Source: Candidatus Levybacteria bacterium RIFCSPLOWO2_01_FULL_39_10 (GTDB taxonomy: Bacteria; Patescibacteriota; Microgenomatia; Levybacterales; UBA12049). Taken from it: 37,647 nt of DNA. Under the pieces are notes generated by a model. It was not told the DNA's origin, did not search any database, and saw only the letters and a program-made list of their open reading frames with translations. Position numbers and translations under genes: made by a program. The number at the start of each line of letters is the position of its first letter. Positions within the stretch are counted from its first letter, which is position 1. The stretch is taken from the NCBI GenBank assembly GCA_001782515.1, contig MFOV01000008.1, forward strand, positions 1 through 37,647, in the 5' to 3' direction. Shown here one piece after another: positions 5,263 through 32,356 of this stretch.

Positions 5263-5271
5263 AACTTTGTT

Positions 5272-7493: not shown

Positions 7494-7502
7494 AACAGCG
7501 TA

Positions 7503-10030: not shown

Positions 10031-10288
10031 CTATTTTTTCTTTAAATCATTTCTAATTCTATTTTTCATATATCTTTTACCCCAACTTGTTTTTAAATAT
10101 ATTTCTCTATGCAAAGCGTCCGACTTATTCCGACATCCTTCAAAATATACTATCTCAAAAGGTCTCCTTGCCTTTGTCGAAATTACTTCACCTGCATTAT
10201 GTTTTTTTAACCTTTTTTCAAGATTATCGGTATATCCTGTGTAGAATTTTCCGTCTTTAATACTTTTTAAAACATAAACATAAAACAT
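10031..10288 (-). CDS. GIY-YIG nuclease family protein (small, UPF0213-like)
   Basis: MFYVYVLKS...GKFYTGYTDNLEKRLKKHN...; track start TTG 10294 replaced by ATG 10288, which gives the typical MFYVY start. Confidence 0.85.
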   Translation of the reverse strand: MFYVYVLKSIKDGKFYTGYTDNLEKRLKKHNAGEVISTKARRPFEIVYFEGCRNKSDALHREIYLKTSWGKRYMKNRIRNDLKKK

Positions 10289-10296: not shown

Positions 10297-10331
10297 GGTA
10301 AATTCTAAATACTAATATCTAAATTCTAACT
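10297..10331. repeat. heptamer module (5 x 7 nt)
   Basis: ggtaaat tctaaat actaata tctaaat tctaact; CTA recurs at 10305, 10312, 10319, 10326; 9 nt upstream of the GIY-YIG ATG. Confidence 0.8.
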
Positions 10332-10446
10332 TGAATATAAGTTGGTTTGCGGATTTAAAACATGCTAGGAGTTCTGGAGAATATTGTGGGGATTTTCCTA
10401 CTGTGGCAGTATTACTATTATCCTCGGAGTTAAAACAATAGAGCAT
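10312..10446 (-). CDS. possible leaderless small ORF (44 aa)
   Basis: ATG 8 nt after the -10 of the promoter at 10455-10484; MLYCFNSEDNSNTATVGKSPQYSPELLACFKSANQLIFKLEFRY; its 3' end runs into the heptamer module; no homology recognised. Confidence 0.25.
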   Translation of the reverse strand: MLYCFNSEDNSNTATVGKSPQYSPELLACFKSANQLIFKLEFRY

Positions 10447-10454
10447 GGATGTTT

Positions 10455-10484
10455 ATAATAGTAACTTATATAGGACTTTGTCAA
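10455..10484 (-). promoter_or_regulatory. sigma70-like promoter upstream of small ORF / GIY-YIG gene
   Basis: minus strand TTGACA (10479-10484), 18 nt, TATTAT (10455-10460). Confidence 0.45.
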
Positions 10485-10535
10485 CCCTTTAATTTGAATC
10501 ATGAAGCAAGAATCATGAATCATGGGTAAGTTAAT

Positions 10536-10889
10536 CTAACGGGGTGATTTTGATCTAAAGATTGAGGCGAGGACGTCAAAGTGAGATACCTTCTCAGCAA
10601 ATTTTATAGCTCTTTTTATATCTCCGTTTTCGTAAGATGCTTCTGTTGCGGTTTTGGATGCTTGCTTTGCTTTTTCAAAACTATCAGTAACTTTTTGAAT
10701 ATCATCTACGTACTCGGCGTATGCAGACGTTGCAATTGAGACTCTCCGAAGACTTTCCTCATATCTTTCACCATTGTATTCTTTTGTAAAACGCACCCTA
10801 TTAAACATCTGATATGATTCTTGAAGGACGCAACTTGCTTCGCTTTGAAGCTGACCAGGGTTTAATCTTTCAAGTTCAACGTTTTGCAT
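10536..10889 (-). CDS. hypothetical protein (117 aa from ATG 10889)
   Basis: Track start TTG 10898; ATG at 10889 (MQNVELERLN...); helical, no motif recognised. Confidence 0.5.
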   Translation of the reverse strand: MQNVELERLNPGQLQSEASCVLQESYQMFNRVRFTKEYNGERYEESLRRVSIATSAYAEYVDDIQKVTDSFEKAKQASKTATEASYENGDIKRAIKFAEKVSHFDVLASIFRSKSPR

Positions 10890-10930
10890 AGTAGGCAATT
10901 CTAGTACCGTGGTAAATCTTTGTCAATTTT

Positions 10931-10939
10931 TGATATAAT
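10931..10939 (+). promoter_or_regulatory. extended -10 promoter (TGATATAAT), leaderless, for 10948..11256
   Basis: TGnTATAAT at 10931-10939, 8 nt before the ATG. Confidence 0.4.
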
Positions 10940-10947
10940 TCCCTGCT

Positions 10948-11256
10948 ATGGAAAGAGATAAAATAGGAATTCAAATAAACGAAAAAGCAGTTGCAGAGTT
11001 TGAAGTAAAAGGAAATAGGATTGTTTCTCCCCGTCGAGTGATTCAAGAAACAATGGGTTTCCCGCTGGTAAACGATAGATTAAAGTTATTTCTTGATGAG
11101 CGAACTGACCTTGTTGTTAGAAGTGGAAGACTAACTGGTGTGAGAGCAAAAGATGCAAGGCGTGTTATTGAAACTGTTAATAGTGATCCTTGGGCTGCTT
11201 TGCCACTTGCTCCAAAGCAAACTCAAAAATTTGTCGCAGATATTCTTAGTCCTTAA
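10948..11256 (+). CDS. hypothetical protein (102 aa)
   Basis: ATG ORF; converges on and overlaps the cysS 3' end by 11 nt. Confidence 0.5.
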   Translation: MERDKIGIQINEKAVAEFEVKGNRIVSPRRVIQETMGFPLVNDRLKLFLDERTDLVVRSGRLTGVRAKDARRVIETVNSDPWAALPLAPKQTQKFVADILSP

Positions 11257-12592
11257 TTTTTTTAATTTTAGTGCCTGTAGGAGTATCCTCAACTGTAAAG
11301 CCTTTTTCTTCTATTTGAACACGGATTTTATCCGCTTCACTAAAGTCGCCGCTTTTCCTAAACTGTTCCCTTTTTTGAATTAACGAACGAACTTCATCCG
11401 GAACTTCCACTTTTTCCGGTTTAAACTCTGCCAAACCAAGTCCCAAAATTTCATCAAATTTTAAAAGGCTTTTCTTTTTAGCGCTTCCCGGATAATCTGA
11501 GCGAACCATTTCCCAAACAACAGACAACGCCTCGGGCATATTCAAATCATCACTTACCGCGTCCTTAAATCTTTGCTCAAACTCGGCACATCCCACTTTT
11601 GCCTCTCCCCAGGAAGCAAGTTCCCCCCGGAGTCTTTCAAGCGCATTTTCAGCTCCCCGCAGTGCCTCCCATGTAAAATTCATCTCCTGACGGTAGTGAG
11701 TCTGTAAATATAAATAGCGAAGAGAAAGGGGTTCAATGCCGTTGTCTTCAATGTCTGAAAGTGTGTAAAAATTGCCAAGACTTTTACTCATTTTCTGCCC
11801 TTCAACCAGAATGTGTGCGCCGTGCACAAAATAATTTACAAATTTCTTGCCGGTTTTGCCCTCAGACTGGGCAATTTCATTCTCATGGTGCGGGAAAATA
11901 AGATCAACCCCTCCTGCGTGAATATCAAATGTTTCACCCAGAGATTCCTGACTCATAACCGAGCACTCAATATGCCAGCCCGGTCTTCCCCACCCCCATG
12001 GCGAATCATAACCAAACTCTTCCCTTCCCTCCGCCTTCCAAAGAGCAAAATCCTGAACGTCATCTTTTGTATATTCATCAGACAGTATCCTTGTTCCAGA
12101 TTTTAGATTTGAAACATCAATCCCCGACAGCTTTCCATATGAGTCAAACTTAGAAATATCAAAGTAAATAGACCCGTCTTCTTCTTTATATGCCAGTCCT
12201 TTTTCGAGCAAAACCTGAATATAGTCAATCATCTTTTGTATATACTCTGTAGCATGTGGCATTTTATCTTTATCCTTTATATTTAGTTTTTTTATATCTT
12301 CAAGGAAATATTTTTCGTACTCGGCTGTTAAGTTTGACACTTTAACATTTTGCTCTTTGGCTTTTTTAATAATTTTGTCATCAATATCAGTTATGTTTTG
12401 GATAGAGGTAACGCTGTAGCCGTTGAGCTCAAGTACTCGTTCAAGTAAATCCGATAATAAAAAAGTTCGAAGATTTCCAATGTGCATATAGTCATATACA
12501 GTCGGTCCACAAGTGTAGATTCCAACTTTTCTTTCATGGATTGGTTTAAACTCCTCAACTTTCCGCGATAATGTATTGTAAAGTTTTAACAT
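11246..12592 (-). CDS. cysS: cysteine--tRNA ligase
   Basis: Class I signatures HIGN (YMHIGNLRTF) and KMSKS (QKMSKSLGN); WHIECS zinc/cysteine-binding region; 448 aa. Confidence 0.95.
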   Translation of the reverse strand: MLKLYNTLSRKVEEFKPIHERKVGIYTCGPTVYDYMHIGNLRTFLLSDLLERVLELNGYSVTSIQNITDIDDKIIKKAKEQNVKVSNLTAEYEKYFLEDIKKLNIKDKDKMPHATEYIQKMIDYIQVLLEKGLAYKEEDGSIYFDISKFDSYGKLSGIDVSNLKSGTRILSDEYTKDDVQDFALWKAEGREEFGYDSPWGWGRPGWHIECSVMSQESLGETFDIHAGGVDLIFPHHENEIAQSEGKTGKKFVNYFVHGAHILVEGQKMSKSLGNFYTLSDIEDNGIEPLSLRYLYLQTHYRQEMNFTWEALRGAENALERLRGELASWGEAKVGCAEFEQRFKDAVSDDLNMPEALSVVWEMVRSDYPGSAKKKSLLKFDEILGLGLAEFKPEKVEVPDEVRSLIQKREQFRKSGDFSEADKIRVQIEEKGFTVEDTPTGTKIKKIKD

Positions 12593-12593
12593 A

Positions 12594-12628
12594 CTAATTA
12601 AATTCTAATATCTAATTTCTAATCAAGG
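12594..12628. repeat. heptamer module directly upstream of the cysS ATG
   Basis: ctaatta aattcta atatcta atttcta atcaagg; three clean ttctaat-type units plus degenerate flanks; starts 2 nt from the start codon. Confidence 0.7.
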
Positions 12629-12650
12629 ACTCTATTTTTCGATTTTAAAT

Positions 12651-12674
12651 TATTGTTCGAGCGAAGTCGAGAAC
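12651..12674. repeat. 24-nt perfect direct repeat, left copy, flanking GIY-YIG gene
   Basis: TATTGTTCGAGCGAAGTCGAGAAC, identical to 12996-13019. Confidence 0.9.
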
Positions 12675-12691
12675 AAGAATTTAACATAAAC

Positions 12692-12961
12692 TTACCATTC
12701 TTTCTTCCAATCGCCTTTTATAAGTTTTTCTTTCTTTTTTCTGCTCCAATCTTTAATTTGAATTTCTCTTTTTCTTGCAGTTTCTAAATCCTCATGTTCT
12801 TCCAAATACGCAAGTTTTCTAACTCCATGTTTCGCTGTGTACTTGCTTCCAAATTTTGATAAATGTTGCTCAAATCTAATTTCTGGCTTCCAAGTTATTC
12901 CTGTATAGTAAGTCCCATCTAAGCATTCTAAAATATAAACAAACCATTTCCATTTTCTCAT
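12692..12961 (-). CDS. GIY-YIG nuclease family protein (small)
   Basis: WFVYILECLDGTYYTGITWKPEIRFEQH...; 89 aa. Confidence 0.8.
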   Translation of the reverse strand: MRKWKWFVYILECLDGTYYTGITWKPEIRFEQHLSKFGSKYTAKHGVRKLAYLEEHEDLETARKREIQIKDWSRKKKEKLIKGDWKKEW

Positions 12962-12995
12962 GATACTTCTCCACGCGCTACGCTTGGTCGAAGAA

Positions 12996-13076
12996 TATTG
13001 TTCGAGCGAAGTCGAGAACTCATGATGCTTTCTTCTCGACTCTCCTTCGACAAACTCAGGATCGCTCGAAGAATAA
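12996..13076. repeat. 24-nt direct repeat, right copy, forming the 5' arm of a long imperfect hairpin
   Basis: TTCGAGCGA (13001-13009) pairs with TCGCTCGAA (13062-13070); GTCGAGAA (13011-13018) pairs with TTCTCGAC (13033-13040). Confidence 0.8.
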
Positions 13077-13090
13077 ATTAGGTTAATTAT

Positions 13091-13690
13091 CTACCCGCTG
13101 ACGCCGGGTAGTTTTTCTGCTGTTCCTTGTTTTACGTTTACCGGAAGCTCGGGCGGTTTTTCGCGCTTTGTTTCAAGTTCTTCCATCTTCTCTTCCTCTT
13201 CCTCTCTTTCCACTTTTTCCTTCGCCCTTTCTTCCTGTTTGGCAGGAGCATTAAATGTGGGATCATAGTACTGCTCTTTGTGAAGTTCTTGTCTTATTTT
13301 TGTTTTCTTTGCTTCCTCCTCGGGATCTACTTCCGGTTTTAAACTAGGAATCCCAAACATGTCTTTAATTGTGCCCGGTTTTTGATTGTCTGATGGCTGA
13401 TTGCTGATGGCTGATTGCTGACTATTCTTAGGCCCGTATAAATTTTGAAGAAACTCCTGAGCCTCCTCGTCCGTCATTTGCTGATTTTGAGTCTGAATAG
13501 CTTGATTTTGTTCATTTGTCCCCTGATCTAAGTTTTGATCACTGTTCGAACTTGAATCCGAACCGGTAAGCTGTCCTGCAGCAGATTTCCCAAAATCAGA
13601 CGCTCCTTTTTTTACACCTTTAGAACTGCTTTGAACAATACTCTGCCCTTTTTCGATTACTTCTTCTGAAAAATGTCCAAAACCTTTCAT
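13091..13690 (-). CDS. low-complexity acidic/Gln-rich hypothetical protein
   Basis: 199-aa ORF rich in S, Q, E and K; contains an in-frame heptamer module; antisense ORF 13127..13342 judged spurious. Confidence 0.5.
   Translation of the reverse strand: MKGFGHFSEEVIEKGQSIVQSSSKGVKKGASDFGKSAAGQLTGSDSSSNSDQNLDQGTNEQNQAIQTQNQQMTDEEAQEFLQNLYGPKNSQQSAISNQPSDNQKPGTIKDMFGIPSLKPEVDPEEEAKKTKIRQELHKEQYYDPTFNAPAKQEERAKEKVEREEEEEKMEELETKREKPPELPVNVKQGTAEKLPGVSG
13391..13425. repeat. heptamer module inside a CDS
   Basis: tgatggc tgattgc tgatggc tgattgc tgactat; encodes SQQSAISNQPS. Confidence 0.8.
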
Positions 13691-13715
13691 ATTTTTATAT
13701 TTAAATTTGCTTAAA

Positions 13716-13750
13716 ACTTTTAACTTTTCACTCTGAACTTTTAACTATAT
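13716..13750. repeat. heptamer module, ACTTTTA family, intergenic copy
   Basis: actttta acttttc actctga actttta actatat; overlaps the recR stop codon; same family as 22098-22132 and 32455-32489. Confidence 0.8.
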
Positions 13751-14401
13751 CTCTATCCTTCCTTCCATGGCCCGTTGCAAAGTTATCTCATCAGCATATT
13801 CCAAATCCGCGCCTATCGGCAAACCTCTCCCGATCCTTGTTACTTTTAGCTTTTCGCCCTGCCTGCCGGCAGGCAGGTTTTGCTTGTCCGCCGGAGCCTT
13901 GGCGGAGGCGGAAGCTTTTAGCTGTTTATCAATATACATTGCAGTTGCTTCACCCTCCATTGTCGGATTTGTCGCAAGTATAATTTCCGTGACACTTCCT
14001 TCACCTTTTACTCTATCAAGGAGTTGCTTAATATATATTTCATCCGGTCCTATGTTATTCAAAGGATCAATCCGGCCGTGCAGGACATGATAAACGCCTT
14101 TATATTTTCCGCTTTTTTCAAGTGCCAAAACATCCAGCGGCTCCTCAACCACACAAATTACACCCTGATCGCGCTCGGGATCTGAACAAATTTCGCATGG
14201 ATCAGTCTCTCCTACAGTAAAACAATTTGAACAAATTATTGTTCCGGTTTTTAAGTTTTGGAGACTTTGGGCAAACTTATCGAGTTCGTATTGCGGTACG
14301 TGTAAAAGATAAAAAGTAAGCCTTTGGGCGGTTTTTGGCCCAATGCCCGGTAATTTTTCAAATGATTCGGTCAATGCCTGTACTGCTTTTGGAATCTTCA
14401 T
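13745..14401 (-). CDS. recR: recombination protein RecR
   Basis: LPGIGPKTAQRLTFYLL helix-hairpin-helix, C4 zinc finger CSNC...CEIC, Toprim region, C-terminal TRIGRGLPIGADLEYAD; ATG 14401 preferred over track TTG 14419; carries a roughly 20-aa low-complexity insertion. Confidence 0.92.
   Translation of the reverse strand: MKIPKAVQALTESFEKLPGIGPKTAQRLTFYLLHVPQYELDKFAQSLQNLKTGTIICSNCFTVGETDPCEICSDPERDQGVICVVEEPLDVLALEKSGKYKGVYHVLHGRIDPLNNIGPDEIYIKQLLDRVKGEGSVTEIILATNPTMEGEATAMYIDKQLKASASAKAPADKQNLPAGRQGEKLKVTRIGRGLPIGADLEYADEITLQRAMEGRIEI
13858..13915. repeat. palindrome-containing insertion inside recR
   Basis: 20-nt perfect palindrome CCTGCCTGCCGGCAGGCAGG (13858-13877), then TTTTGCTTGTCCGCCG (13878-13893), which is identical to 35058-35073. 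Confidence 0.8.
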
Positions 14402-14410
14402 GATTCTAGT

Positions 14411-14480
14411 TATTAGCAATTAGCATTTAGCCATTAGTTAATAAAACTAAAAGCTAGTTGCTAGTGGCTAGTTGCTCCTT
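14411..14480. repeat. heptamer modules between recR and prs (about 10 phased units)
   Basis: tattagc aattagc atttagc cattagt taataaa actaaaa gctagtt gctagtg gctagtt gctcctt; the last units encode the Prs C-terminus ATSH-stop. Confidence 0.8.
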
Positions 14481-15405
14481 TCAATTCTTCTGCTATCATA
14501 TCTGCAACACTTATTATCTCAAGTTTTCCAAATTTTCGATTTTCTGGTATCTCAATTGTATCTGTAACAATCACTTTTTTAATATTTGAATTTTGTATTT
14601 CTTGGGGAGCATCTCCTGCAAAAACTCCATGGGTAGACATAGCATAAACCTCCTCTGCCCCATTCTCCGTTAAAAGATCTGCTGAGGCAATTAAAGTTTT
14701 GCCTGTTGAAATAACATCATCGACAATTACTGCTGTTTTTTTAACGCCTCCTGTAAACTTGAGCGACTTAATATCCCCTGTTACAAGGTCTCTGTCTTTT
14801 TCAACTGTAACATATGGCACTCCGCCAAGCTCTTCTGAAATTTTTTTAATTCGTGCAATGCCTCCCATGTCAGGACTTACTAAAACAAGCTCGTGATTTA
14901 TGATTGATGATTTATGATTGATGATTTCGTGAGGGGTGGCGAGCGAATTTATTTTTTTTGCAAATAAGGGAATGGCTGAAAGTTCCCTCACTTCTTTTTT
15001 GAAAAGCTCGGATATTTTGACCGAATGAAACTCAAATGAAATAAATCTATCAACTCCAAGACTTTCCAAAATCTTAATTATAACCTCAAGCGAAACGCCT
15101 TCACCTGATCTAAACACATGGTCCTGTCTTTGATACCCAAGATAAGGGATTACAAGTGTAACTCGCCGTGCTCCTGATCTTTTAAGAGAATCGAGGATGA
15201 AAAAAAGCTCCATGTAGTATAAGTTGGGAGATATTCCCGTAGACTGTACCACCACAACATCCTGATCTAATACATCACTTATTACCCTGACTCTGTTTTC
15301 GTTGTCGGGAAAAGTATGAATTTCAATTTGGCCCAAGTCGTAACCTTTGTGATCGGCGATTTTTTGAGCCAAACTTTTATTTGAGCTTCCTGAAAAAATT
15401 AACAT
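14461..15405 (-). CDS. prs: ribose-phosphate pyrophosphokinase
   Basis: PRPP-binding loop VIVDDVISTGKTL; overall Prs layout; 314 aa; start overlaps the ybaB stop (TAATG). Confidence 0.92.
   Translation of the reverse strand: MLIFSGSSNKSLAQKIADHKGYDLGQIEIHTFPDNENRVRVISDVLDQDVVVVQSTGISPNLYYMELFFILDSLKRSGARRVTLVIPYLGYQRQDHVFRSGEGVSLEVIIKILESLGVDRFISFEFHSVKISELFKKEVRELSAIPLFAKKINSLATPHEIINHKSSIINHELVLVSPDMGGIARIKKISEELGGVPYVTVEKDRDLVTGDIKSLKFTGGVKKTAVIVDDVISTGKTLIASADLLTENGAEEVYAMSTHGVFAGDAPQEIQNSNIKKVIVTDTIEIPENRKFGKLEIISVADMIAEELKGATSH
14894..14928. repeat. heptamer module inside prs
   Basis: tgattta tgattga tgattta tgattga tgatttc; encodes EIINHKSSIINH. Confidence 0.85.
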
Positions 15406-15686
15406 TAACTACCACCTAAAAGCCCTGATAGCCCTCCTTGCATTCCTGCAAGTTTTTTAGCAGCTATTTCCTGGGATTTTTTAATAGCTTCATTTACCGC
15501 ATCTTTAATGTCGCTATCTGACCTATCATTAGTCTTAAGTTCCTGAATTTTTTGATCTCCTGAGATTTTTATTTCAACTCCGTGTTTTTCAACGTCAATT
15601 ATCTCTGCTGCAAGAAGCCGCTGAATCTGCATAGCCTGATCGCGCATCTTTTTTAATTCTCCAATTTGTCCAAAAGGATTTCTCAT
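15405..15686 (-). CDS. ybaB: YbaB/EbfC family nucleoid-associated protein
   Basis: Size, conserved position after dnaX and helical N-terminus MRNPFGQIGELKKMRDQAMQIQ; track GTG 15695 lies inside the SD GGAGGTGA, so ATG 15686 is preferred. Confidence 0.8.
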   Translation of the reverse strand: MRNPFGQIGELKKMRDQAMQIQRLLAAEIIDVEKHGVEIKISGDQKIQELKTNDRSDSDIKDAVNEAIKKSQEIAAKKLAGMQGGLSGLLGGS

Positions 15687-15692
15687 AAAATT

Positions 15693-15763
15693 CACCTCCC
15701 CCTGTTGGATAACCTTCGATATCCAACGGGGTCACGTTGGATGCGCTAGCTATCCAACAGTGA
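15693..15763 (-). promoter_or_regulatory. two-hairpin leader RNA motif, copy B (dnaX-ybaB intercistronic)
   Basis: minus strand CACU-GUUGGAU-AGCUAGCGC-AUCCAAC-GUGACC-CCGUUGGAUA-UCGAAGGU-UAUCCAACAGG-GGGAGGUG; abuts the dnaX stop and ends in the ybaB SD. Confidence 0.65.
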
Positions 15764-17143
15764 CTAATTTTTTAATTTTATCTCAACTTTTATTTTTTCG
15801 CCTGTTATCTCACTCGCAAACCTTTCAATCAAAGCTTGCGCATTTTCACTACTTAATCTATCTTTATGAAACTTGTAACCTGTTGAAAGGGTAAGTTTGT
15901 TTTTATCGAATTTTTCAATCTTACATCCTCGCAATAACCCTGCAACTGTGACATTTTCTTTTTTAATTTTTTCTATCAGCTCTTCTAATATCTTATCATC
16001 TTTATTCTCACCAACGCTTGGGTTTTTCAAACTTAAACTCGGATTCTGGGAAATGTTCGTCTGATTATCCGAATCACTGATACTCCGATTCTCTGAGTTT
16101 TCTGAGTTTTCTGAGTTTTCCGAAAAGCACCACTCAACTATTGCAAGCTCAAGTGGAAGCTGCGGAATTACGGAATATTTTACTTCCATATGAGATTTTG
16201 ATAAAAGAAGAATAAGATCCCTTGTTTCATTTGTTTTTCCTAATCCTTGCCTTGCTTCATTTATAAGTCTTTGGTGGAGTTCTTCAATAAGATTCTGGGT
16301 AAACAGCTTAAAATCAATGCCAGCGTTTGATAGATCATTGACGGTTTCGATTGCCGCATTTACGTCTTTTTCCGAAAGCGCGCTGACAAGCTCCTCTGTT
16401 GCCAAGTTTAAAGTTTTTGTTTTGTATCTTTTCTCAACTGTAATTAAACTAATACTTGATGATGTTGATAGTTCTTCAAGAATTTTTGCGCCGTCTCTAA
16501 AACTTCCGTCTGACAATTTTGCAATCTGAATTAAAGCTTCCTTATCCGCTTTTATTTTTTCTCCTTTTACAATTTGCTGAAATGAGGAAACGAGCTCCTC
16601 ATTTGTTGCTTTTGAAAAAGACAAATGAAAACAGCGAGACTTAATCGTCTCAGGAACTTTCTGAGATTCTGTTGTGCATAAAATAAAATACGCATGGGAC
16701 GGCGGCTCTTCAAGTGTTTTTAAAAGTGCGTTGAATGCTTCAGTTGTCAGCATATGCACCTCGTCAATTATATAGATTTTTTTCTTTGACTGAACAGGTG
16801 AGAGTCTTATCTTCTCCCTCAAATCCCTTATCTCATCAATTCCGCGATTTGAAGCAGCATCAATCTCAATCACATCAAGATTTGTGCCATTTCCAATTGA
16901 TAAGCAAGGAAAGCATTTGTTACAAGGCTCAATATCCCTGCCGCGCCTATTAGTGCAATTTATTGCTTTTGCTATAAGACGCGCGGTTGATGTTTTTCCA
17001 AGACCCCGGCCGCCTGTAAACAAAAATGCGTGGGGAATTTTGTCAGGAATATTCCCTTTTAGCGCGTTTTCAAGCTTTTCCCGCGCCGAAACGCAGTCAA
17101 GCTCTGAAAATTTCTTCGGTCGGTATTTTAAATAAAAAACCAT
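15764..17143 (-). CDS. dnaX: DNA polymerase III subunit gamma/tau
   Basis: Walker A GGRGLGKTSTARL, zinc module CNKCFPC, Walker B IYIIDEVHML, sensor motifs; contains a SENSENSENSEN repeat insertion. Confidence 0.93.
   Translation of the reverse strand: MVFYLKYRPKKFSELDCVSAREKLENALKGNIPDKIPHAFLFTGGRGLGKTSTARLIAKAINCTNRRGRDIEPCNKCFPCLSIGNGTNLDVIEIDAASNRGIDEIRDLREKIRLSPVQSKKKIYIIDEVHMLTTEAFNALLKTLEEPPSHAYFILCTTESQKVPETIKSRCFHLSFSKATNEELVSSFQQIVKGEKIKADKEALIQIAKLSDGSFRDGAKILEELSTSSSISLITVEKRYKTKTLNLATEELVSALSEKDVNAAIETVNDLSNAGIDFKLFTQNLIEELHQRLINEARQGLGKTNETRDLILLLSKSHMEVKYSVIPQLPLELAIVEWCFSENSENSENSENRSISDSDNQTNISQNPSLSLKNPSVGENKDDKILEELIEKIKKENVTVAGLLRGCKIEKFDKNKLTLSTGYKFHKDRLSSENAQALIERFASEITGEKIKVEIKLKN
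16093..16119. repeat. 9-nt tandem repeat (3 units) inside dnaX
   Basis: ctgagtttt x3; encodes (SEN)n; total length resembles the heptamer modules. Confidence 0.85.
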
Positions 17144-17155
17144 GGTCGCATTGCT

Positions 17156-17190
17156 CCAATTTCTAATTACTAATTTCTAAATACTAAGAC
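17156..17190. repeat. heptamer module upstream of dnaX
   Basis: ccaattt ctaatta ctaattt ctaaata ctaagac; 12 nt upstream of the dnaX ATG. Confidence 0.8.
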
Positions 17191-17298
17191 GCGGGAAGCT
17201 ATAAAATTTTCGCAACGTACGTCAGCGACGAAGAGTTTATGGATAAACAAAATTTATTCGCGCAGGCAGTAAGAAAATTTTAAAGCGACCTTAAGCGT
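17188..17298. repeat. 110-nt repeat element with inverted termini, copy 1
   Basis: About 88 percent identical to 18335-18447 by eye; ends GACGC..AAAATTTTCG and GAAAATTTT..GCGTC are inverted complements. Confidence 0.8.
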
Positions 17299-17691
17299 CT
17301 ATTCTTCATGGTGCAGTCCGAGTAAATGGCCCATGCCATGAACAATCAGCTGATCAATCTTGTCATCCACCAGCATCTCGTCTCTTGCCGCCTCCTCAAT
17401 TACCTTAGGGTACGATATCACAATATCCCCAAGCCTCAGTTTGTCAGTCGGAGGACGGGAACTTGCGCCGTCTGAAAGCGAAAAAGTGAGAATGTTTCTT
17501 GTTTTATCCTCTCCCTTGTATTTTAGGGAAAGTTCCCTCATTTTCCTGTCTCCGACTACTGCAACTGATACCTCAACCGGTGATTTCACTCCCTCCTTTG
17601 ATAATGTTGAGCCGACTGCTGATCTTATTCTTTTTCTGTTAACTTTATAACGGGACTCCACAAAAATCAGAACATTAATACTGTTTTCCAT
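17299..17691 (-). CDS. ybeY: rRNA maturation RNase YbeY
   Basis: Metal-binding motif HGMGHLLGLHH (HxxxHxxGxxH); 130 aa; follows rpsU with a 3-nt gap. Confidence 0.9.
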   Translation of the reverse strand: MENSINVLIFVESRYKVNRKRIRSAVGSTLSKEGVKSPVEVSVAVVGDRKMRELSLKYKGEDKTRNILTFSLSDGASSRPPTDKLRLGDIVISYPKVIEEAARDEMLVDDKIDQLIVHGMGHLLGLHHEE

Positions 17692-17694
17692 ATA

Positions 17695-17877
17695 TTAAAA
17701 ACTTGCTCTTTTGACGCGTCTTGCCTCCTCTGCTTTTGCTTTTCTGGCAAGAGAGGGCTTAAGGTAAAATTCTCGCCTTTTTGCTTCCTGAATAATTCCC
17801 TCATTTATTACTTTTTTTGTAAATTTGCGAATAAGCGAATCATCACTGTCTCCGGGCATTTTTTTAACAACTACCAT
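17695..17877 (-). CDS. rpsU: 30S ribosomal protein S21
   Basis: 60-aa basic protein; SLIRKFTKKV...EAKRREFYLKPSLARKAK pattern typical of S21. Confidence 0.88.
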   Translation of the reverse strand: MVVVKKMPGDSDDSLIRKFTKKVINEGIIQEAKRREFYLKPSLARKAKAEEARRVKRASF

Positions 17878-17888
17878 AATTTAGAAAA

Positions 17889-17960
17889 CACCTCCCCCTG
17901 TTGGATAATCTTCGATATCCAACGGGGTCACGTTGGATGCATTAGCTATCCAACAGTGAC
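17889..17960 (-). promoter_or_regulatory. two-hairpin leader RNA motif, copy C (upstream of rpsU)
   Basis: 69 of 72 nt identical to copy B; all three differences fall in hairpin loops. Confidence 0.65.
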
Positions 17961-17973
17961 CAATTTTTTTACT

Positions 17974-18294
17974 TTATATTTCATGTTTACTCCATGGCCC
18001 CATTAAATGAATATGCAAGTGGCTTATGATTTGTGCTCCCCCGCCATTTATTCCAATCCTGTAACCTTTTTTCTCAAGACCAGTCTCTTTTATCATTTTT
18101 TTCAAAATTTTTGTCATTTTTGCAAGCGAGTCTTCATCAACATCTAAAAAATCCCGGATGTGTTTTTTTGAGACTATCAAAAGATGCGTTGGTCTTATGG
18201 GATTAATATCCGGAAAAACCATAACGTCTTTATCTTCATAGGTAAACTCTTTTGGAATTTCCCCATCTCTGATTTTACAAAAAATACAATCCAT
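17974..18294 (-). CDS. HIT family protein (histidine triad hydrolase)
   Basis: CIFCKI N-terminus and HIT motif HLHIHLMG; ATG 18294 preferred over track TTG 18303. Confidence 0.88.
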   Translation of the reverse strand: MDCIFCKIRDGEIPKEFTYEDKDVMVFPDINPIRPTHLLIVSKKHIRDFLDVDEDSLAKMTKILKKMIKETGLEKKGYRIGINGGGAQIISHLHIHLMGPWSKHEI

Positions 18295-18300
18295 ATTTGG

Positions 18301-18335
18301 CAATTAGCTACTAGCATCTAGCTTCTAGCATTTAG
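18301..18335. repeat. heptamer module upstream of the HIT gene
   Basis: caattag ctactag catctag cttctag catttag; TAG recurs every 7 nt at 18305, 18312, 18319, 18326, 18333. Confidence 0.85.
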
Positions 18336-18447
18336 TGCAGGGAGCTTGTGAAATTTTCGAAGCGTACGTCAGCGACGAAGAGTTTATGGACAGACTAAAC
18401 TTTATTCGCGCAGGCAGTAAGAAAATTTTATAAGCGACCTTGAGCAC
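18335..18447. repeat. 110-nt repeat element with inverted termini, copy 2
   Basis: Shares AAATTTTCG.AGCGTACGTCAGCGACGAAGAGTTTATGGA...TTTATTCGCGCAGGCAGTAAGAAAATTTTA.AAGCGACCTT with copy 1. Confidence 0.8.
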
Positions 18448-18450
18448 TTG

Positions 18451-19332: not shown

Positions 19333-19422
19333 AGATAGAATAGATAGACTAGTATACTTGTTTTTCCGAAAGATTTAAAGTTTTTCCCTTGACAAGGAAT
19401 TAAATTAATATAAACTAAGGGT

Positions 19423-19908
19423 ATGGATCCAAAACTGTCCGGGCTTGATCCCAAGCTTCAGGATGCGTATAACCGTGTTATGAGCGGTCCAACTGCTCAG
19501 ACAACAACAACTCCCCCAGGCGCTCAAACAGAGGCAGTAACTGCACCAGCAGGAACAACTCCTGCGCCAGCTGTTGGACCTTCGCCGATGTCAGTAAATC
19601 CTCAACCAAATACAACACTGGGCTACACAGGATTTGACACATCATCAAGCCCTGCTCAGTCGTACTCAAGTGCTGCATCCTACGCAACACCATCGGTTGC
19701 CCCTCCATCTTCGATGGGCTCATCAACTGTTTCATTTAATGCAGGAGGCTCTACATCATCCCAGCCCCAGGGAACGACAGCTGTAAAGAAAAAAGGGTCA
19801 GGACTTATGCCTGTTCTTGTCGGAATACTTATTATTTTTCTTCTGGCAGGATATACCTTTGTGTGGATTTATATTTTTGGAGTCGAGCTACCCTTCATTA
19901 ATTTTTGA
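19423..19908 (+). CDS. Pro/Thr/Ser-rich protein with C-terminal TM anchor
   Basis: Low-complexity P/T/S/A region followed by LMPVLVGILIIFLLAGYTFVWIYIF; overlaps the proS 3' end by 21 nt. Confidence 0.5.
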   Translation: MDPKLSGLDPKLQDAYNRVMSGPTAQTTTTPPGAQTEAVTAPAGTTPAPAVGPSPMSVNPQPNTTLGYTGFDTSSSPAQSYSSAASYATPSVAPPSSMGSSTVSFNAGGSTSSQPQGTTAVKKKGSGLMPVLVGILIIFLLAGYTFVWIYIFGVELPFINF

Positions 19909-21156
19909 AATAACTTGAGAAGCTTCCAATAGCTCTTCTTTTCCTTCTTCTCTTTTTTTTAGCTCGATTTTATCTCCTGACTTTTCCGAAACCACCAGCC
20001 TATATGGAAATCCCAAAAGATCTGCATTTGCAAATTTTTCTCCTGCAGATGTGTCTCTATCATCCCAAAGAACCTCAATGTTGTTTTCGTTCAGCGTTTC
20101 ATAAACTTTCTGTGCTTCTGTGTTTATAGACTTCCCATCCAAACTGATTAAGTAAACCTGAAAAGGTGCGACGCTTTTTGGCCAAATTATGCCGCGCTCA
20201 TCATGGAACACTTCAACAAGTGCGCCTATCACTCTTGTTGGACCGATTCCATAGCTTGCAAACCAAATAGGTTTTTGCTCTCCCCCCTCATCTGTATAAA
20301 AAACTTTCTGGGCTTCAGAATATTTTGTTCCTAGAGGAAAAATATTTCCGACCTCTATTGCTCTTGCTGACTTTATCAAACACCCATCGCTACACCCCGG
20401 ACATTTATTGTCAGGTAAACCTTTATATATTTCTTTATTTTGCGCAAACTTGCACTCGCATTTGTCTTTGCGGTCACAGAATAAAATCTCATCCTCACCC
20501 ACATCTGACACTATCTGAAACTCGTGACTTTTTTTGTCCGTAAACACTCCGCCTGCTGCTTCAACCACTTTAACTTCAGGAAATCCAATTCGCTTAAAAA
20601 CTCTTATATATGCATCTTTTATTTTATTGTAATAATCCGCCATATCCGCCTCTGTTGCGTGTGCAGAATACAAATCTTTCATAAAAAATTCACGGGTTCG
20701 CAAAATTCCGGACTTAGCTCTCGGTTCATTTCTGAATTTAGTTGAGAAGTGATAGACAGCAACAGGAAGATCTTTATAGGACTTAACAAATTTGGATAGA
20801 AGATTCATTACAATTTCCTCGTGAGTAAATGAAAGCCCATACTCTCTCCTGTGCACGTCTTTGAACTGGTACATTATTTTTTGGACCTCAGGGTCAGACC
20901 ATCGGCCTGTCTGATCCCAGATTTCTCGAGGATGCAAAAGAGGCATAAGAAGTTCTTGTGCGCCCTCTGCATTTAATTCTTCTCTTATTATATTTTTTAT
21001 ATTTTCAACTACCCGAAACCCAAGCGGAAGAAGTGTGTAGCTTCCTGCCATAAGCTGATCAATAAATCCACCTTTTGTAAGAAGTATTGCATTTGTTGAT
21101 AAATCCTCTTTAAATTCCTGCTTCCTTGCCTTGGGAAAAAATGTGCTGTACCTCAT
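19888..21156 (-). CDS. proS: proline--tRNA ligase (no full INS editing domain; short Cys-rich insert)
   Basis: Class II motif 2 FRNEPRAKSGILRTREFFMKDLYSAH and motif 3 GIGPTRVIGALVE; anticodon-binding C-terminus; 422 aa. Confidence 0.9.
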   Translation of the reverse strand: MRYSTFFPKARKQEFKEDLSTNAILLTKGGFIDQLMAGSYTLLPLGFRVVENIKNIIREELNAEGAQELLMPLLHPREIWDQTGRWSDPEVQKIMYQFKDVHRREYGLSFTHEEIVMNLLSKFVKSYKDLPVAVYHFSTKFRNEPRAKSGILRTREFFMKDLYSAHATEADMADYYNKIKDAYIRVFKRIGFPEVKVVEAAGGVFTDKKSHEFQIVSDVGEDEILFCDRKDKCECKFAQNKEIYKGLPDNKCPGCSDGCLIKSARAIEVGNIFPLGTKYSEAQKVFYTDEGGEQKPIWFASYGIGPTRVIGALVEVFHDERGIIWPKSVAPFQVYLISLDGKSINTEAQKVYETLNENNIEVLWDDRDTSAGEKFANADLLGFPYRLVVSEKSGDKIELKKREEGKEELLEASQVISKINEG

Positions 21157-21299
21157 TTATAAATATGAACTAAACGCTAATAGCTAGCCTGCCCGTAAAG
21201 CCTTGCTTGCATGGCGGGCGGGTGGCTAATTGCTAAATTCGAGTATAGCATAATTTGAAATTTAGGAGTATAATTCCATATTTGTTATGACTCCCAATT

Positions 21300-21329
21300 C
21301 ACACCCTCCGGGTGATCTAGGTTCACACC
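21300..21329. repeat. 30-nt repeat CACACCCTCCGGGTG..GGTTCACACC, copy 1 (spans the gnd stop)
   Basis: Matches 31819-31848 with 4 mismatches; core palindrome CACCC-TCC-GGGTG. Confidence 0.7.
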
Positions 21330-22246
21330 TTTTCTTTTTTTACCTCGTGGCCGCCGAATTCCCGACGAAGTGCAGAGACAAGTTTTGCGGTTGTTGAGTT
21401 TCTGATTTTTTCGTCTGTTTTGGACCGCTTTCGAAAATTTAGTGCTTGTTGGATGTTTTCAACCATTACTCCCTCTTCTTCTGCTGTCTTGACAGTCCAA
21501 TCGCCTTCGCCTGACGCATCAATCTCTCCTATCAAACTTTGATAATCGCCGCGATCCAGAGCATCGCGCATTCTGTCCAGCAAGAATCCAGAAACAATTG
21601 TTCCTTTTTGGAAAATACCTGCAATTTTAGGAAGATCAAACTTGTAATCTGATTTTTCCAATACCTCAAACCCCTCGGATAAACTCTGCATGAGCCCATA
21701 CTCAATACCGTTATGAACCATTTTTATAAAATGCCCTGCACCGCCCTGTCCAAAATATTCATGGCCCCCGTTAGGTTTTGACAGAGAATCTAAAACCGGA
21801 ATTATGTGTTCGTACGCGGATTTCGATCCTCCCACCATAAAAGGATATCCGTTTTTTGATGCAAGAATTCCGCCAGACGTTCCGATGCCTAAATATCGAA
21901 CGCCTATTTTTTCGAATTTCTCATATCGTCTTTCGGTATCGCGATAATTTGAATTTCCTCCGTCAATTATGATGTCGTCTTTTTCTACATACTTTCGAAT
22001 TTCTGTTAAAACTTCATCAACCGCAGTATGCGTCACCATAATCCAAATGATTCTGGGCTTATCCAAACCTTGAACCAGTTGTTTAAGCGATTCACAAACT
22101 TTTAACTTTTCACTTTTAACTTTTAACTTAAGCTCCTCCGAAGAAGCTCTTGACCTATTCCAAACATGAACTTCAAACCTGTCTTTTAAAAGTTTTGGAA
22201 CCATCCCCGATCCTATTTTCCCAAGCCCCACAAATCCTATTTGCAT
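21323..22246 (-). CDS. gnd: 6-phosphogluconate dehydrogenase (decarboxylating), short form
   Basis: NAD(P)-binding GFVGLGKIGSGM, GTSGG and HFIKMVHNGIEYG motifs; 307 aa; contains an in-frame heptamer module. Confidence 0.88.
   Translation of the reverse strand: MQIGFVGLGKIGSGMVPKLLKDRFEVHVWNRSRASSEELKLKVKSEKLKVCESLKQLVQGLDKPRIIWIMVTHTAVDEVLTEIRKYVEKDDIIIDGGNSNYRDTERRYEKFEKIGVRYLGIGTSGGILASKNGYPFMVGGSKSAYEHIIPVLDSLSKPNGGHEYFGQGGAGHFIKMVHNGIEYGLMQSLSEGFEVLEKSDYKFDLPKIAGIFQKGTIVSGFLLDRMRDALDRGDYQSLIGEIDASGEGDWTVKTAEEEGVMVENIQQALNFRKRSKTDEKIRNSTTAKLVSALRREFGGHEVKKEKV
22098..22132. repeat. heptamer module, ACTTTTA family, inside gnd
   Basis: actttta acttttc actttta actttta acttaag; encodes LKLKVKSEKLKV. 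Confidence 0.85.
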
Positions 22247-22269
22247 AATAACTTAGTCTACCAACTTTA

Positions 22270-22298
22270 TTGTTGTTTTAAAAGTGAAATGTTAAACT
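22270..22298 (+). promoter_or_regulatory. candidate leaderless promoter for 22305..22982
   Basis: TTGTTG (22270-22275), 17 nt, TAAACT (22293-22298), 6 nt to ATG. Confidence 0.3.
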
Positions 22299-22304
22299 AA
22301 GGCT

Positions 22305-22982
22305 ATGAAATTTAATCTAGATGATGCTGTTGAAAAAATAAAAAATAATAAAGACTTTCTAAAACTTAAGAAAATTATCGAAAATAACGCAGGCCATGAT
22401 CATGAACCAGTGTATGATCACAGTATAAAAACGTTTGAGATAGCAAATCGGTTAGTAAAAGGTGACTTTATTTTAAATGCTGAAGCGAAAAATATGTTTG
22501 AAAGTTATATAAGACAAGAGGTTGGGGGGATAAAGAAATTAGATTTATTTAAATTCACCGCGCTAATCCACGATATTGGGAAAGTTATCGTTTTCGATGA
22601 TGGTGGAAAGAAAAGAAGTTTGAATATAACTTCTTCTGATGGAATAACATCATCCCCACAACACGGATATTGGGGTTCAAGAATAGTTAAGAACATAACA
22701 AAAGAAGTAGGTTTACCATACGAGGTTATTTCCTATATTGAAAACGTAATTAGACTTCATCTTGCAACAATCGAACATTGGGAAACGGAACATAATATGA
22801 GTGTGGACGAAATTATTTGGGACTCTAAAATAAAATTAGAAAATCTGCACGTTGATGTGCTTTTCAATTTATATTCTGATCTTTATTCTCAGTCTCGTTT
22901 CAAGCCAAAAGAAAAGATTATGATTGAAATCTTTAATAATCCAAATTTTTATAATCCCTTGAAATATTCAATTACTGATTAG
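22305..22982 (+). CDS. HD domain-containing protein
   Basis: H...HD signature: DHSIKTFEIANRL and ALIHDIGK; 225 aa. Confidence 0.7.
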   Translation: MKFNLDDAVEKIKNNKDFLKLKKIIENNAGHDHEPVYDHSIKTFEIANRLVKGDFILNAEAKNMFESYIRQEVGGIKKLDLFKFTALIHDIGKVIVFDDGGKKRSLNITSSDGITSSPQHGYWGSRIVKNITKEVGLPYEVISYIENVIRLHLATIEHWETEHNMSVDEIIWDSKIKLENLHVDVLFNLYSDLYSQSRFKPKEKIMIEIFNNPNFYNPLKYSITD

Positions 22983-23305
22983 ACAACCTCCGCGCCGGTT
23001 TCTACCTCTGAAGTTGGTTCAAGAAGAACTGTTTTGTCCTCGACATCAATTGCCAAGATCATTCCCTGTGATTCCTCGCCTCTTATTTTTCTATATTCCA
23101 AATTTACAACAAAAGGAAAAGTTCTTCCAATTAAATCTTCGGGAGAAAAACTCTCGGCAATTCCTGATATGATTTGGCGTTTAAAATCACCAAAATCAAC
23201 CTGGAGTTTTAGGAGCTTATCGGCTCCGTCGACCCTCTCGCACTCAAGAACCTTCCCCATCCTGATTTCTACCTGTTTGAATTGTTCAAAGGTAACTTTG
23301 CTCAT
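22979..23305 (-). CDS. tRNA-binding domain protein (CsaA / MetRS C-terminal-like)
   Basis: FEQFKQVEIRMGKVLECERVDGADKLLKLQVDFGD...ISGIA...NLEYRKIRGEESQGMILA, the typical OB-fold tRNA-binding pattern. Confidence 0.85.
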   Translation of the reverse strand: MSKVTFEQFKQVEIRMGKVLECERVDGADKLLKLQVDFGDFKRQIISGIAESFSPEDLIGRTFPFVVNLEYRKIRGEESQGMILAIDVEDKTVLLEPTSEVETGAEVV

Positions 23306-23340
23306 AAAACTCTAAATTCTAATATCTAAATCCTAAATAA
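23306..23340. repeat. heptamer module, left flank of the four-helix-bundle gene
   Basis: aaaactc taaattc taatatc taaatcc taaataa; starts directly after the ATG of 22979..23305. Confidence 0.8.
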
Positions 23341-23342
23341 AT

Positions 23343-23704
23343 TCAAATTTTCGAATTCTCCAAAATCTTACCAAATATTTTTCTTAATTGTACGACTTCA
23401 TCTAAAAGTTCTCGTTTTGCGTCATTAAGGCCATTGCTTACATCAATCAAGTTAAGCCAATATTGTGTTTCCTTAGCTTCCTTTCTGCAAATCATAATTC
23501 TCATCAAAAAATCTTTTTTACTTAATGCTTCGTTTGCTTCGACATAATTAGCACCAACTGAACCACTAGATCTTACTAATTGTTTTCCGTCTTCAAAGTT
23601 GGAAACGCTTTTCGGCAGTTTTTTACAAAGTCTCTCGTTTCTTTAGCGAATTTCAAAGTCCTATCTTCTAAATCATATTGTTTTGAATTTTGAGTTTTGA
23701 TCAT
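23343..23704 (-). pseudogene. four-helix-bundle protein (23S rRNA IVS-type) gene with a 1-nt frameshift
   Basis: Frame 1 reads MIKTQNSKQYDLEDRTLKFAKETRDFVKN.. and stops. The shifted frame continues KKLPKSVSNFEDGKQLVRSSGSVGANYVEANEALSKKDFLMRIMICRKEAKETQYWLNLID..., the family signature. The shift is at a 6-nt A run (plus-strand T run 23629-23634); span is 362 nt, which is 3n-1. Confidence 0.8.
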
Positions 23705-23738
23705 TATTTAGAATTTAGTGCTTAGTATTTAGGATTTA
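23704..23738. repeat. heptamer module, right flank of the four-helix-bundle gene, inverted relative to 23306-23340
   Basis: ttattta gaattta gtgctta gtattta ggattta; its reverse complement resembles the left-flank units; overlaps the zwf stop. Confidence 0.8.
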
Positions 23739-31127: not shown

Positions 31128-31133
31128 ATTTTC

Positions 31134-31252
31134 TAGACGATAGATTGTAGAAGGTAGATAGTAGAATCTTGAAGATAGAAGATTGAAGATCGATTCTATC
31201 TTCTACCGTCAACCCTCAAGCTACTATCATCTATTTTCTACCATCCATTGTC
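31134..31252. repeat. 17-unit phased heptamer array with mirror (inverted) halves
   Basis: tagacga tagattg tagaagg tagatag tagaatc ttgaaga tagaaga ttgaaga tcgattc | tatcttc taccgtc aaccctc aagctac tatcatc tattttc taccatc cattgtc; the right half is the reverse-complement type (..TCTA/..TCAA) of the left TAGA/TTGA units. Confidence 0.85.
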
Positions 31253-31256
31253 AAGT

Positions 31257-32317: not shown

Positions 32318-32356
32318 AATTCAAGTTTATAATTAAAAATTTAAAATTAAAAGTTT

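Follow-up and report, generated by a model that had tools for sequence, protein, structure and literature searches.

Heptanucleotide repeat arrays at gene boundaries of a Patescibacteria-like genome stretch: probable slippage origin and a possible leader role

Tandem repeats of a 7-nt unit close to start codons have been reported from several bacterial groups. TAACTGA repeats are known from marine Beggiatoaceae, some cyanobacteria and Bacteroidetes (MacGregor 2015, PMC4679880). In Nostoc PCC7120, several heptamer words are found no more than 30-100 nt away from start codons or overlapping with them, e.g., (GACYAAT)8 across the recO start and, ahead of recF, (TTTTGAA)3; deletion of the recO repeat changed the response of the promoter to LexA/NtcA, and no binding protein was identified (bioRxiv 10.1101/2022.06.06.494920). 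Heptamers of the short tandemly repeated repetitive (STRR) type are known from Calothrix and Nostoc (as cited in PMC4692102), and G-rich heptamers occur in Xanthomonas and Nostoc (PMC4692102). According to the accounts of Mrazek 2007 given in PMC4679880 and PMC4692102, among the long simple sequence repeats (LSSR) of many bacteria, heptamers form the class that is over-represented most, with polymerase slippage as a possible cause. Here, we analyzed period-7 arrays in contig MFOV01000008.1 (positions 1 to 37,647, referred to as the window) of Candidatus Levybacteria bacterium RIFCSPLOWO2_01_FULL_39_10, an ultra-small bacterium from groundwater, and in related loci (designated by L numbers). 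An earlier note, made from the sequence of the window, had described such arrays as modules of about five heptamers ahead of start codons. We favor the reading, with a probability of about 0.5, that they are simple sequence repeats (SSR) made by slippage and serving as intercistronic leaders poor in Shine-Dalgarno (SD) sites; within this reading, slippage stands on far firmer ground than translation.

The arrays share with the TAACTGA system the number of two to six tandem heptamers, the location mostly a few nt upstream of starts and the rarity of SD sites, and both include arrays that run over the stop codon of the open reading frame (ORF) upstream (PMC4679880), here the stops of prs (in 14453-14480) and of the glucose-6-phosphate dehydrogenase (G6PD) gene (in 23704-23738). 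Further likenesses are stops in all frames in the forward orientation, toleration of the other orientation in ORFs at protein ends (compare the copy in a loop of Prs), an association with housekeeping genes including ribosomal protein operons, and a function that is unproven (PMC4679880). However, the TAACTGA system uses a single fixed word and related heptamers are seldom repeated, whereas we encountered dozens of words with turnover at individual sites, in a phylum that is Patescibacteria-like, and inverted pairs of arrays that fold. Neither the window rows of Tandem Repeats Finder (TRF) nor the word list of 96 arrays contained a TAACTGA unit.

The likeness to cyanobacterial heptamer repeats, which the earlier note had pointed out, was borne out by the presence of several words per genome and by start-codon proximity, and a TTTTGAA array also exists in the window (23681-23700). 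As in STRR, several families of tandem heptanucleotide words occupy non-coding DNA, though 44% of the arrays of this clade are located in long ORFs. In contrast, cyanobacterial arrays can reach 8 to >20 units and reuse their words at many sites, while a cap near 31-35 nt applies here; their G-rich types form quadruplexes, while our arrays are A/T-rich; and the STRR hosts are (heterocystous) cyanobacteria, while the closest relative bearing a name is here a Patescibacteria metagenome-assembled genome (MAG). To our knowledge, none of the consensus words listed is an STRR1-3 word. The definition of LSSR as tandem 5-11-nt units running longer than composition predicts also describes our arrays. 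In the accounts of Mrazek 2007 in PMC4679880 and PMC4692102, a heptamer excess with other unit lengths near expectation, a mostly intergenic location, a scattered phylogeny and a proposed polymerase slippage resemble our observations; the coding-region repeats treated there have units that are multiples of 3, whereas here 44% of heptamer arrays are in long ORFs, and these accounts describe no co-directional preference, no closeness to starts or stops and no length mode. The arrays thus behave like the STRR and TAACTGA systems, yet they are not members of either. The architecture, thought by the earlier note to be undescribed in genomes of this kind, is already in the literature, where PMC4679880 describes it in Beggiatoaceae, cyanobacteria and Bacteroidetes, and bioRxiv 10.1101/2022.06.06.494920 in Nostoc; our literature search found no paper on such arrays in Patescibacteria.

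Abundance and placement of the arrays

Period-7 arrays were called by TRF together with a lag-p self-match scan (periods 2 to 21), and the chance level was taken from Markov or dinucleotide-preserving shuffles. By the lag-p scan, the window contained 13-14 arrays compared to 0.1-0.2 in shuffled sequence, in support of the earlier observation. The only other enriched periods were 14 (2 x 7) and one 9-mer. Overall, period-7 arrays were 60-100 times commoner than in shuffled sequence. The window sequence is identical to contig k141_1156583 of the European Nucleotide Archive (ENA) assembly ERZ4903072, and positions 12096-18031 were recovered from eight other assemblies (ENA, Joint Genome Institute (JGI) and Logan samples) with 99.9-100% identity and no gaps, the remainder being covered by further assemblies. 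Since the arrays occur in eight independent assemblies of other samples with virtually identical gap-free sequence, an assembly artefact was ruled out. The genetic code is standard, with called genes terminating in TAA, TAG or TGA.

Relatives were collected by a Prs-based scan of species-representative genomes, which gave three loci, one of them labelled Patescibacteria, and by a RecR-based metagenome scan, which added 80 more (83 in all). Of the relatives that bear a name, the closest one (L012) is a Patescibacteria MAG, which agrees with the gene content and with the origin of the samples in groundwater. Across the 15 closest loci, which total 187 kb, 67 period-7 arrays were counted against 1.0 expected, as well as seven of period 8 and ten of period 9. 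Eight period-7 arrays were found in 15.5 kb of L010 and three in 20.9 kb of L011; among the RecR loci, L038 (16 in 18.8 kb), L040 (7), L050 (6) and L078 (5) were array-dense. Fourteen unrelated loci had none, and many distant RecR loci were array-free as well, including nine at 32-35% GC. These nine loci rule out AT-richness as the cause, since it is insufficient on its own to produce arrays. In total, 96 arrays in 732 kb displayed more than 60 different consensus words, most of them A/T-rich.

The arrays had been introduced as intergenic. This holds for 56% of them, which fall into the 16% of bases outside long ORFs; the other 44% lie within long ORFs, including five window arrays that run in frame through the 199-aa ORF, prs, a 6-phosphogluconate dehydrogenase (6PGDH)-like gene, an M50 protease gene and rpsB. 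For the position test, 32 arrays in spacers leaving at least 40 nt of positional freedom were considered. Half of them (16/32) ended no more than 15 nt from a start, compared to 5.0 +/- 2.0 expected, a count that was not attained in any of 20,000 random placements and that substantiates the proposed start-codon bias. Seven of the 32 were at most 5 nt from a stop (1.8 expected, P=0.0016). Co-directional spacers held 30 arrays in 19.4 kb, as opposed to none in 3.95 kb of convergent (~4 expected) and one in 4.66 kb of divergent spacers (~5 expected). The counts by spacer type and boundary thus place the arrays between cistrons and against gene boundaries. An SD-like motif was present at 3 of the 25 starts led by an array, compared to 57 of the 172 remaining starts (P=0.036).

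The called genes of the window exhibit three start types, namely promoter-adjacent (leaderless-like) starts, where a TTGACA-17-TATAAT promoter ends 7-9 nt ahead of the ATG, starts with a strong SD site (two of them behind a structured element), and array-led starts. Many window genes combine a -10 hexamer (TATAAT or TAGAAT) 7-9 nt from the ATG and a near-consensus TTGACA-17 promoter with the lack of an SD site; such promoters were seen upstream of 1835-2641(-), 4801-5262(-), 6660-6995(+), 7083-7493(-), 10536-10889(-), 10948-11256(+) and 19423-19908(+). This pattern suggests that leaderless mRNAs may be frequent in this organism.

Repeated heptads can act on DNA, as the TTTTGAT operator sites of the cholera toxin promoter illustrate. 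Regulatory elements of this kind, either promoter-like or repeated operators, are a very unlikely explanation of our arrays. The ATTTAGA arrays do put TAGAAT 9-10 nt ahead of the ATG of cysS and of the tRNA-binding gene, a leaderless-like geometry, and TAGAAT serves as a -10 element in this genome, as in the real-looking window promoter TTGACA-17-TAGAAT; the altered recO promoter response to LexA and NtcA in Nostoc (bioRxiv 10.1101/2022.06.06.494920) points in the same direction. However, a consensus promoter scan flagged none of the arrays, and no -35 element was present at the right spacing. Promoter-like sites were not enriched overall (42 vs 40.7), most words (CTAGNNG, AAAAGTT, TTCGAAT) lack -10 character, and the arrays are nearly absent from divergent spacers, where promoters lie.

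Persistence at orthologous sites and origin by slippage

A comparison of orthologous spacers, which the earlier note had called for, revealed that arrays recur before dnaX, recR, cysS and the HIT gene with different words. At dnaX, start-proximal arrays were present in the window (ATTAGNA), L010 (CTAGNNG), L037 (AATTAGA), L038 (TTCGAAT) and L108 (CAATTNN), and more weakly in L011 (CTAnnnG, 13/21 at lag 7). Arrays before recR were found in the window, L010, L011, L034, L038, L040 and several distant loci, and those before cysS and HIT in several loci, the word family of the window at the HIT site being shared by L010 and replaced by another word in L011 and L038. Before dnaX and recR, array presence was retained down to ~45-55% protein identity. 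No array was found ahead of the starts of prs, ybeY and a DHH-like gene in the loci compared, and none (0/13) before ybaB and rpsU, where a strong GGAGGTG site is kept. Upstream of recR, we also observed period 8 (GAACAATT type) in L033 and period 9 (CGATTAGAA and TAATTAGNN types) in L090 and L094, the 9-mers of which retain a TTAGA core.

Word diversity, an indel and in-frame insertions all point to slippage as the process that most likely makes and homogenizes the arrays. In L030, which was assembled from the same population, array 13383-13421 is shorter by exactly two units (14 nt) at window position 13390, which splits the 199-aa ORF, a hypothetical gene; the four other assemblies covering this site have the window allele. 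The variation in unit number that characterizes LSSR was hence documented by this one case. Phase-variation contingency loci are surface or virulence genes that are switched on and off by the unit number of an SSR in their promoter or 5' coding region. Here, the L030 deletion is one frame-disrupting change in unit number, whereas most arrays adjoin housekeeping genes (dnaX, recR, cysS, tsf) and were invariant among six to nine assemblies. In comparison with orthologues, Prs and DnaX contain arrays as in-frame insertions that are specific to a lineage. For instance, array 14894-14926 codes EIINHKSSIINH, part of a 13-residue insertion (HEIINHKSSIINH) in an interdomain loop of Prs that is not present in the proteins of L011, Kaiserbacteria and Bacillus, while at this place the Prs of L010 carries another insertion, of 32 residues. 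At the dnaX site, TTAGAAA of the window and TTCGAAT of L038 stand in the same register beside a conserved TTGGAGC, as expected from homogenization within an inherited array. Slippage would also agree with the published view that polymerase slippage may underlie the heptamer excess. The occurrence of more than 60 words in 96 arrays, together with the ORF arrays and the two-unit indel, supports the proposal of a shared generating process rather than one mobile sequence. Inside dnaX (16092-16120), we further noted a perfect 9-nt repeat, TCTGAGTTT x 3.2, which codes SENSENSENSEN in a variable linker; L010 has SSESSESSE in its place.

Copy number peaked at four to five units. By TRF and a maximal-segment scan, array length was not distributed geometrically and showed a second mode at 30-33 nt with almost no arrays >35 nt, so that the length near 35 nt given in the earlier note is real. 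The mode (~31 nt) was the same within and outside ORFs, and no other period has one. It looks like a property of the generating or destabilizing process rather than of leader function; one possibility would be a ceiling reached where misaligned homology amounts to ~25 nt under expansion-biased slippage.

If slippage alone were at work, the arrays might be neutral, a strong lineage-specific heptamer bias filling DNA that is free to vary, such as the unconstrained sequence ahead of SD-less starts and behind stops, with no role of their own. We consider this doubtful, albeit a serious alternative. It would account for the 44% of arrays within long ORFs, essential genes among them, for word turnover at one site, for periods 8 and 9 in place of 7 before recR (L033, L090, L094), for the length mode shared by coding and spacer arrays, for the lack of special folding in array-led leaders and for the ORF-disrupting indel of L030, and it fits the attribution of heptamer excess in bacteria to polymerase slippage (Mrazek 2007, in the accounts of PMC4679880 and PMC4692102). 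However, convergent spacers, expected to be the least constrained, hold none of the ~4 arrays expected and divergent spacers one of ~5; in long spacers, arrays are packed against starts or stops instead of being spread; and their presence before dnaX and recR survives to the divergence given above.

Possible leader role and rival readings

Under the favored combination of slippage and a leader role, strand slippage in replication or repair would amplify a local 7-mer and keep its units uniform, anywhere in the genome and up to a ceiling near 31-35 nt. Arrays in ORFs would be by-products that retain the frame in tolerant loops or protein tails. Retention would occur mainly in co-directional spacers, either before SD-less starts or on and just after stops, where the arrays may form the A/U-rich 5' leader of internal cistrons and probably act as tracts at which ribosomes enter or re-initiate independently of SD sites. 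The TAG and TAA triplets of the arrays in this genome additionally close all frames just before the start. Of the translation or leader role suggested by the earlier note, the leader position held up, as the arrays occupy almost only co-directional spacers; from this observed position we infer that a function in translation is probable.

Several points weigh against the leader role. Recurrence at the same gene starts could reflect that unconstrained spacers exist only there, and the array-free genes are those that are translationally coupled, SD-led or promoter-adjacent. The 31-nt mode, seen equally in ORF arrays, points to mutation dynamics, not to leader function. The samples of convergent and divergent spacers are small. 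Starts in relatives are mostly ORF-based, being called as the first start after a stop, apart from those checked by N-terminal conservation, i.e., dnaX (MVFY...), recR (MKIPK...), HIT and cysS. Folding of positions -40 to +20 at 52 called window starts gave a mean z of 0.14 for array-led and 0.21 for other starts; array-led starts are therefore no less structured, low structure does not distinguish them, and the idea of an unstructured leader was rejected. Single arrays likewise folded like shuffled sequence (z near 0). A barrier of stops in all frames is true of the TAG/TAA arrays of the window but was discarded as a general function and is a local side effect, since several start-proximal arrays of L038 and L078 have no stops in any frame.

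Where two inverted arrays share a spacer (window 14399-14482, L038 4148-4291), they form long hairpins with z about -2.8; the window pair (14411-14437 and 14453-14480) reaches -20.8 kcal/mol and z -2.8. Searches against Rfam at gathering thresholds and with ARAGORN gave no matches. Pairing of UUAGAAA with the 3' tail of 16S rRNA was considered only; no rRNA gene is present in the window or the loci, and such pairing would leave the other words unexplained.

In Bacillus, HutP binds UAG triplets with a 4-nt separation and TRAP binds 11 G/UAG triplets with a 2-3-nt separation. In most arrays listed for the window, UAG or UAA likewise follows on the mRNA strand at an exact 7-nt spacing, four to five times in a row. 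The arrays might thus be mRNA sites for a protein that reads the 7-nt register and controls the downstream cistron post-transcriptionally. We regard such control as quite unlikely; candidate readers would be a HutP-like protein (UAG plus 4-nt spacer), cold-shock proteins (~7 nt per monomer) or ribosomal protein S1. Apart from the UAG spacing and the intercistronic, start-proximal location, it would be in line with the recurrence of the 13-mer TTAGATATTAGAA, which is exact in the window at 12594 and 23306 as well as in L040 and L050 and has one mismatch at 10297, and of TTAGA-type words, which are found in L010, L037 and L053 as well as, at period 9, in L090 and L094. Moreover, S1, Csp or CsrA have been proposed for the TAACTGA repeats (MacGregor, PMC4679880). 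On the other hand, the words at the dnaX site (ATTAGNA, CTAGNNG, TTCGAAT, CAATTNN) are too unlike for one sequence-specific binder, and UAG is wholly missing from many arrays and unconserved at orthologous sites. About one quarter of spacer arrays are close to stops, and ORFs contain 44% of the total. HutP sites, with two sets of UAG triplets, precede or overlap a terminator upstream of the regulated operon, whereas our arrays abut starts of many unrelated housekeeping genes and no terminator follows.

A broader proposal would treat the arrays as a selected class in which the 7-nt register and A/U-richness are read instead of the word. They would then be elements of SD-independent intercistronic initiation or of mRNA processing, with the ribosome (S1) or a heptamer-footprint protein as the reader. 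We hold this to be unlikely.

Array catalogue, neighboring elements and implications

Direct reading of both strands confirmed phased 7-nt units at all seven sites of the earlier note, as did TRF (~19 period-7 rows in the window) and, for 23306-23340, the lag-7 scan (Table 1). Its distances to the ATG of the GIY-YIG gene, cysS, recR, dnaX, the HIT gene and the tRNA-binding gene were correct, with the exception of block 23704-23738, which begins on the G6PD stop codon and so is stop-proximal, not start-proximal. Each block had been credited with its own word. In fact, five of the eight form one degenerate family (WTTAGAW on one strand) and YTAG is common to all eight. Nor are the arrays confined to 10297-23738: about ten were found beyond those listed, four of them at 30859-32485.

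Table 1. Period-7 arrays of the window (all assigned to the minus strand), their units, gene context and detection (rows of TRF or the lag-7 scan in brackets where they differ from the array limits)
Position	Unit	Gene context	Detection
10297..10331	mRNA sense ATTTAGA x ~4.5	ends ~8 nt ahead of ATG of GIY-YIG gene (10031-10288)	TRF (10299-10329), direct reading
10495..10524	+ strand TGAATCA x 4.3	starts 11 nt past stop of 117-aa ORF (10536-10889)	TRF, lag-7 scan
12594..12628	TTAGAAA/TTAGATA/TTAGAAT	directly against cysS ATG at 12592 (gap 1 nt), without SD site	TRF (12604-12623), direct reading
13383..13421	heptamer/14-mer, TGATTGC/TGATGGC	in frame in 199-aa ORF	TRF
13715..13746	mRNA sense GTTAAAA	from recR stop codon to ~24 nt ahead of 199-aa ORF ATG	TRF
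14411..14437	mRNA sense GCTAATN	ends 10 nt ahead of recR ATG (14401); inverted partner of 14453..14480	TRF (14412-14437), direct reading
14453..14480	mRNA sense GCNACTA	provides last codons and TAG stop of prs	TRF (14453-14476), direct reading
14894..14926		in frame in prs	TRF
17156..17190	TTAGWAW	followed by GGAG and dnaX ATG (17143); 12 nt before ATG	TRF (17158-17187), direct reading
18301..18335	CTAGNNG	ends 6 nt ahead of HIT gene ATG (18294)	TRF (18311-18335), direct reading
22097..22129	+ strand AACTTTT x 4.7	in frame near N-terminus of 6PGDH-like gene; codes LKLKVKSEKLKV	TRF
23306..23340	ATTTAGA	directly against ATG (23305) of tRNA-binding-domain gene; gap 0-4 nt	direct reading, lag-7 scan (23311-23338)
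23681..23738	two adjoining arrays, + strand TTTTGAA x 2.9 and TATTTAG x 4.9	first unit of second array (23704-23738) on TAA stop of G6PD gene	TRF (23705-23738)
30859..30889	+ strand GCTAATG x 4.4	in frame in M50 protease gene; one unit altered TAG -> AAG, frame stays open	TRF
31148..31190	degenerate, mRNA sense TTCTATC	TRF end 20 nt from M50 protease ATG (31127); weaker periodicity continues nearer ATG	TRF, lag-7 scan
32326..32356		fills 39-nt spacer between rpsB stop and tsf ATG	TRF, lag-7 scan
32449..32485	+ strand CTTTTAA x 5.3	in frame in rpsB C-terminal tail	TRF

Two other repeated elements lie ahead of starts. Copies of a ~90-nt element (15687-15790(-) and 17878-17985(-), 93% identical) stand directly ahead of the GGAGGTG SD sites of ybaB and rpsU. 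The fold consists of a pair of strong hairpins (-34 and -36 kcal/mol, z -5.2 and -5.9); a G-run at the 5' edge of the SD site pairs with the second one, and no Rfam match was obtained; gene 9159-9923 is preceded by a related ATCCAACAGGGAGGAGGTG tail. A ~95-nt element (17204-17296 and 18351-18445, 91.6% identical) lies between the upstream stop and the heptamer array at both dnaX and HIT and contains a long-range stem rich in A/U (z -2.1 and -1.3); the 3' part of the element (TTCGAAAATTTCACAAGCTCCCT) is also found ahead of dnaX in L010. The GIY-YIG gene at 12692-12961 (region 12640-13030) is enclosed by 22-nt direct repeats (GTTCTCGACTTCGCTCGAACAATA), not by heptamer arrays. L010 has no GIY-YIG gene between hyp199 and cysS, which suggests that the gene of the window may have been inserted recently, and L011 carries ~670 nt of other sequence at that position.

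The earlier note had linked the arrays to selfish genes and offered an insertion-site or terminus role. A connection with small mobile elements (GIY-YIG genes, ~95-nt elements), the arrays being their ends, target sites or scars, is extremely unlikely and largely refuted. Arrays do adjoin a GIY-YIG gene (array 10297) and the ~95-nt element before dnaX and HIT, and L040 has two 31-nt arrays 6 kb apart (13620-13650 and 19739-19769), TAATGGAAAATAGAGAATGGAAAATGGAATA and its exact reverse complement, which look like terminal inverted repeats around a segment. However, an array precedes cysS in L010, where the GIY-YIG gene is lacking, as well as in L053; the GIY-YIG gene at 12692-12961 has direct repeats of its own; most arrays adjoin no repeated element; and sites flanking one element bear different words. 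Inverted paired arrays were also noted in two distant RecR loci of high GC content (50-65%), L057 2083-2214 (CGTGACA / GTCACGN) and L064 264-365 (CGACCGN / GGTCNGT); such pairs are therefore not confined to the AT-rich clade.

Elsewhere in the window, a 161-nt repeat (5139-5299 and 7370-7530, 90% identical) spans the promoter and 5' end of genes 4801-5262 and 7083-7493, which are probably paralogues. The top-scoring tandem repeat of the window (TRF score 145) is a 53-nt unit x 1.9 at 5354-5457, placed in the spacer between gene 4801-5262 and a Fic-domain gene.

No class of longer simple repeats is more over-represented in bacteria than the heptamers. Reports from three phyla describe them as clustered at start codons, with cause and function unproven. 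The clade described here offers a system whose compactness, AT-richness and short spacers lend themselves well to comparison. The near restriction to co-directional spacers, gene-specific persistence combined with word turnover, and the 31-nt mode are new details that make the heptamer question more testable, and these patterns separate the part of mutation (period, length, coding insertions) from the part that is possibly selected (position). If the leader role were true, it would bear on the translation of internal cistrons in organisms with few SD sites; if it were false, the arrays would be a clean natural case of a 7-nt slippage bias writing repeats into essential genes. Should the 7-nt register itself be read, the same class would underlie the start-codon heptamers of cyanobacteria, Beggiatoaceae and Bacteroidetes, and would constitute, for bacteria that make little use of SD sites, a third general mark of internal cistrons next to such sites and leaderless starts.

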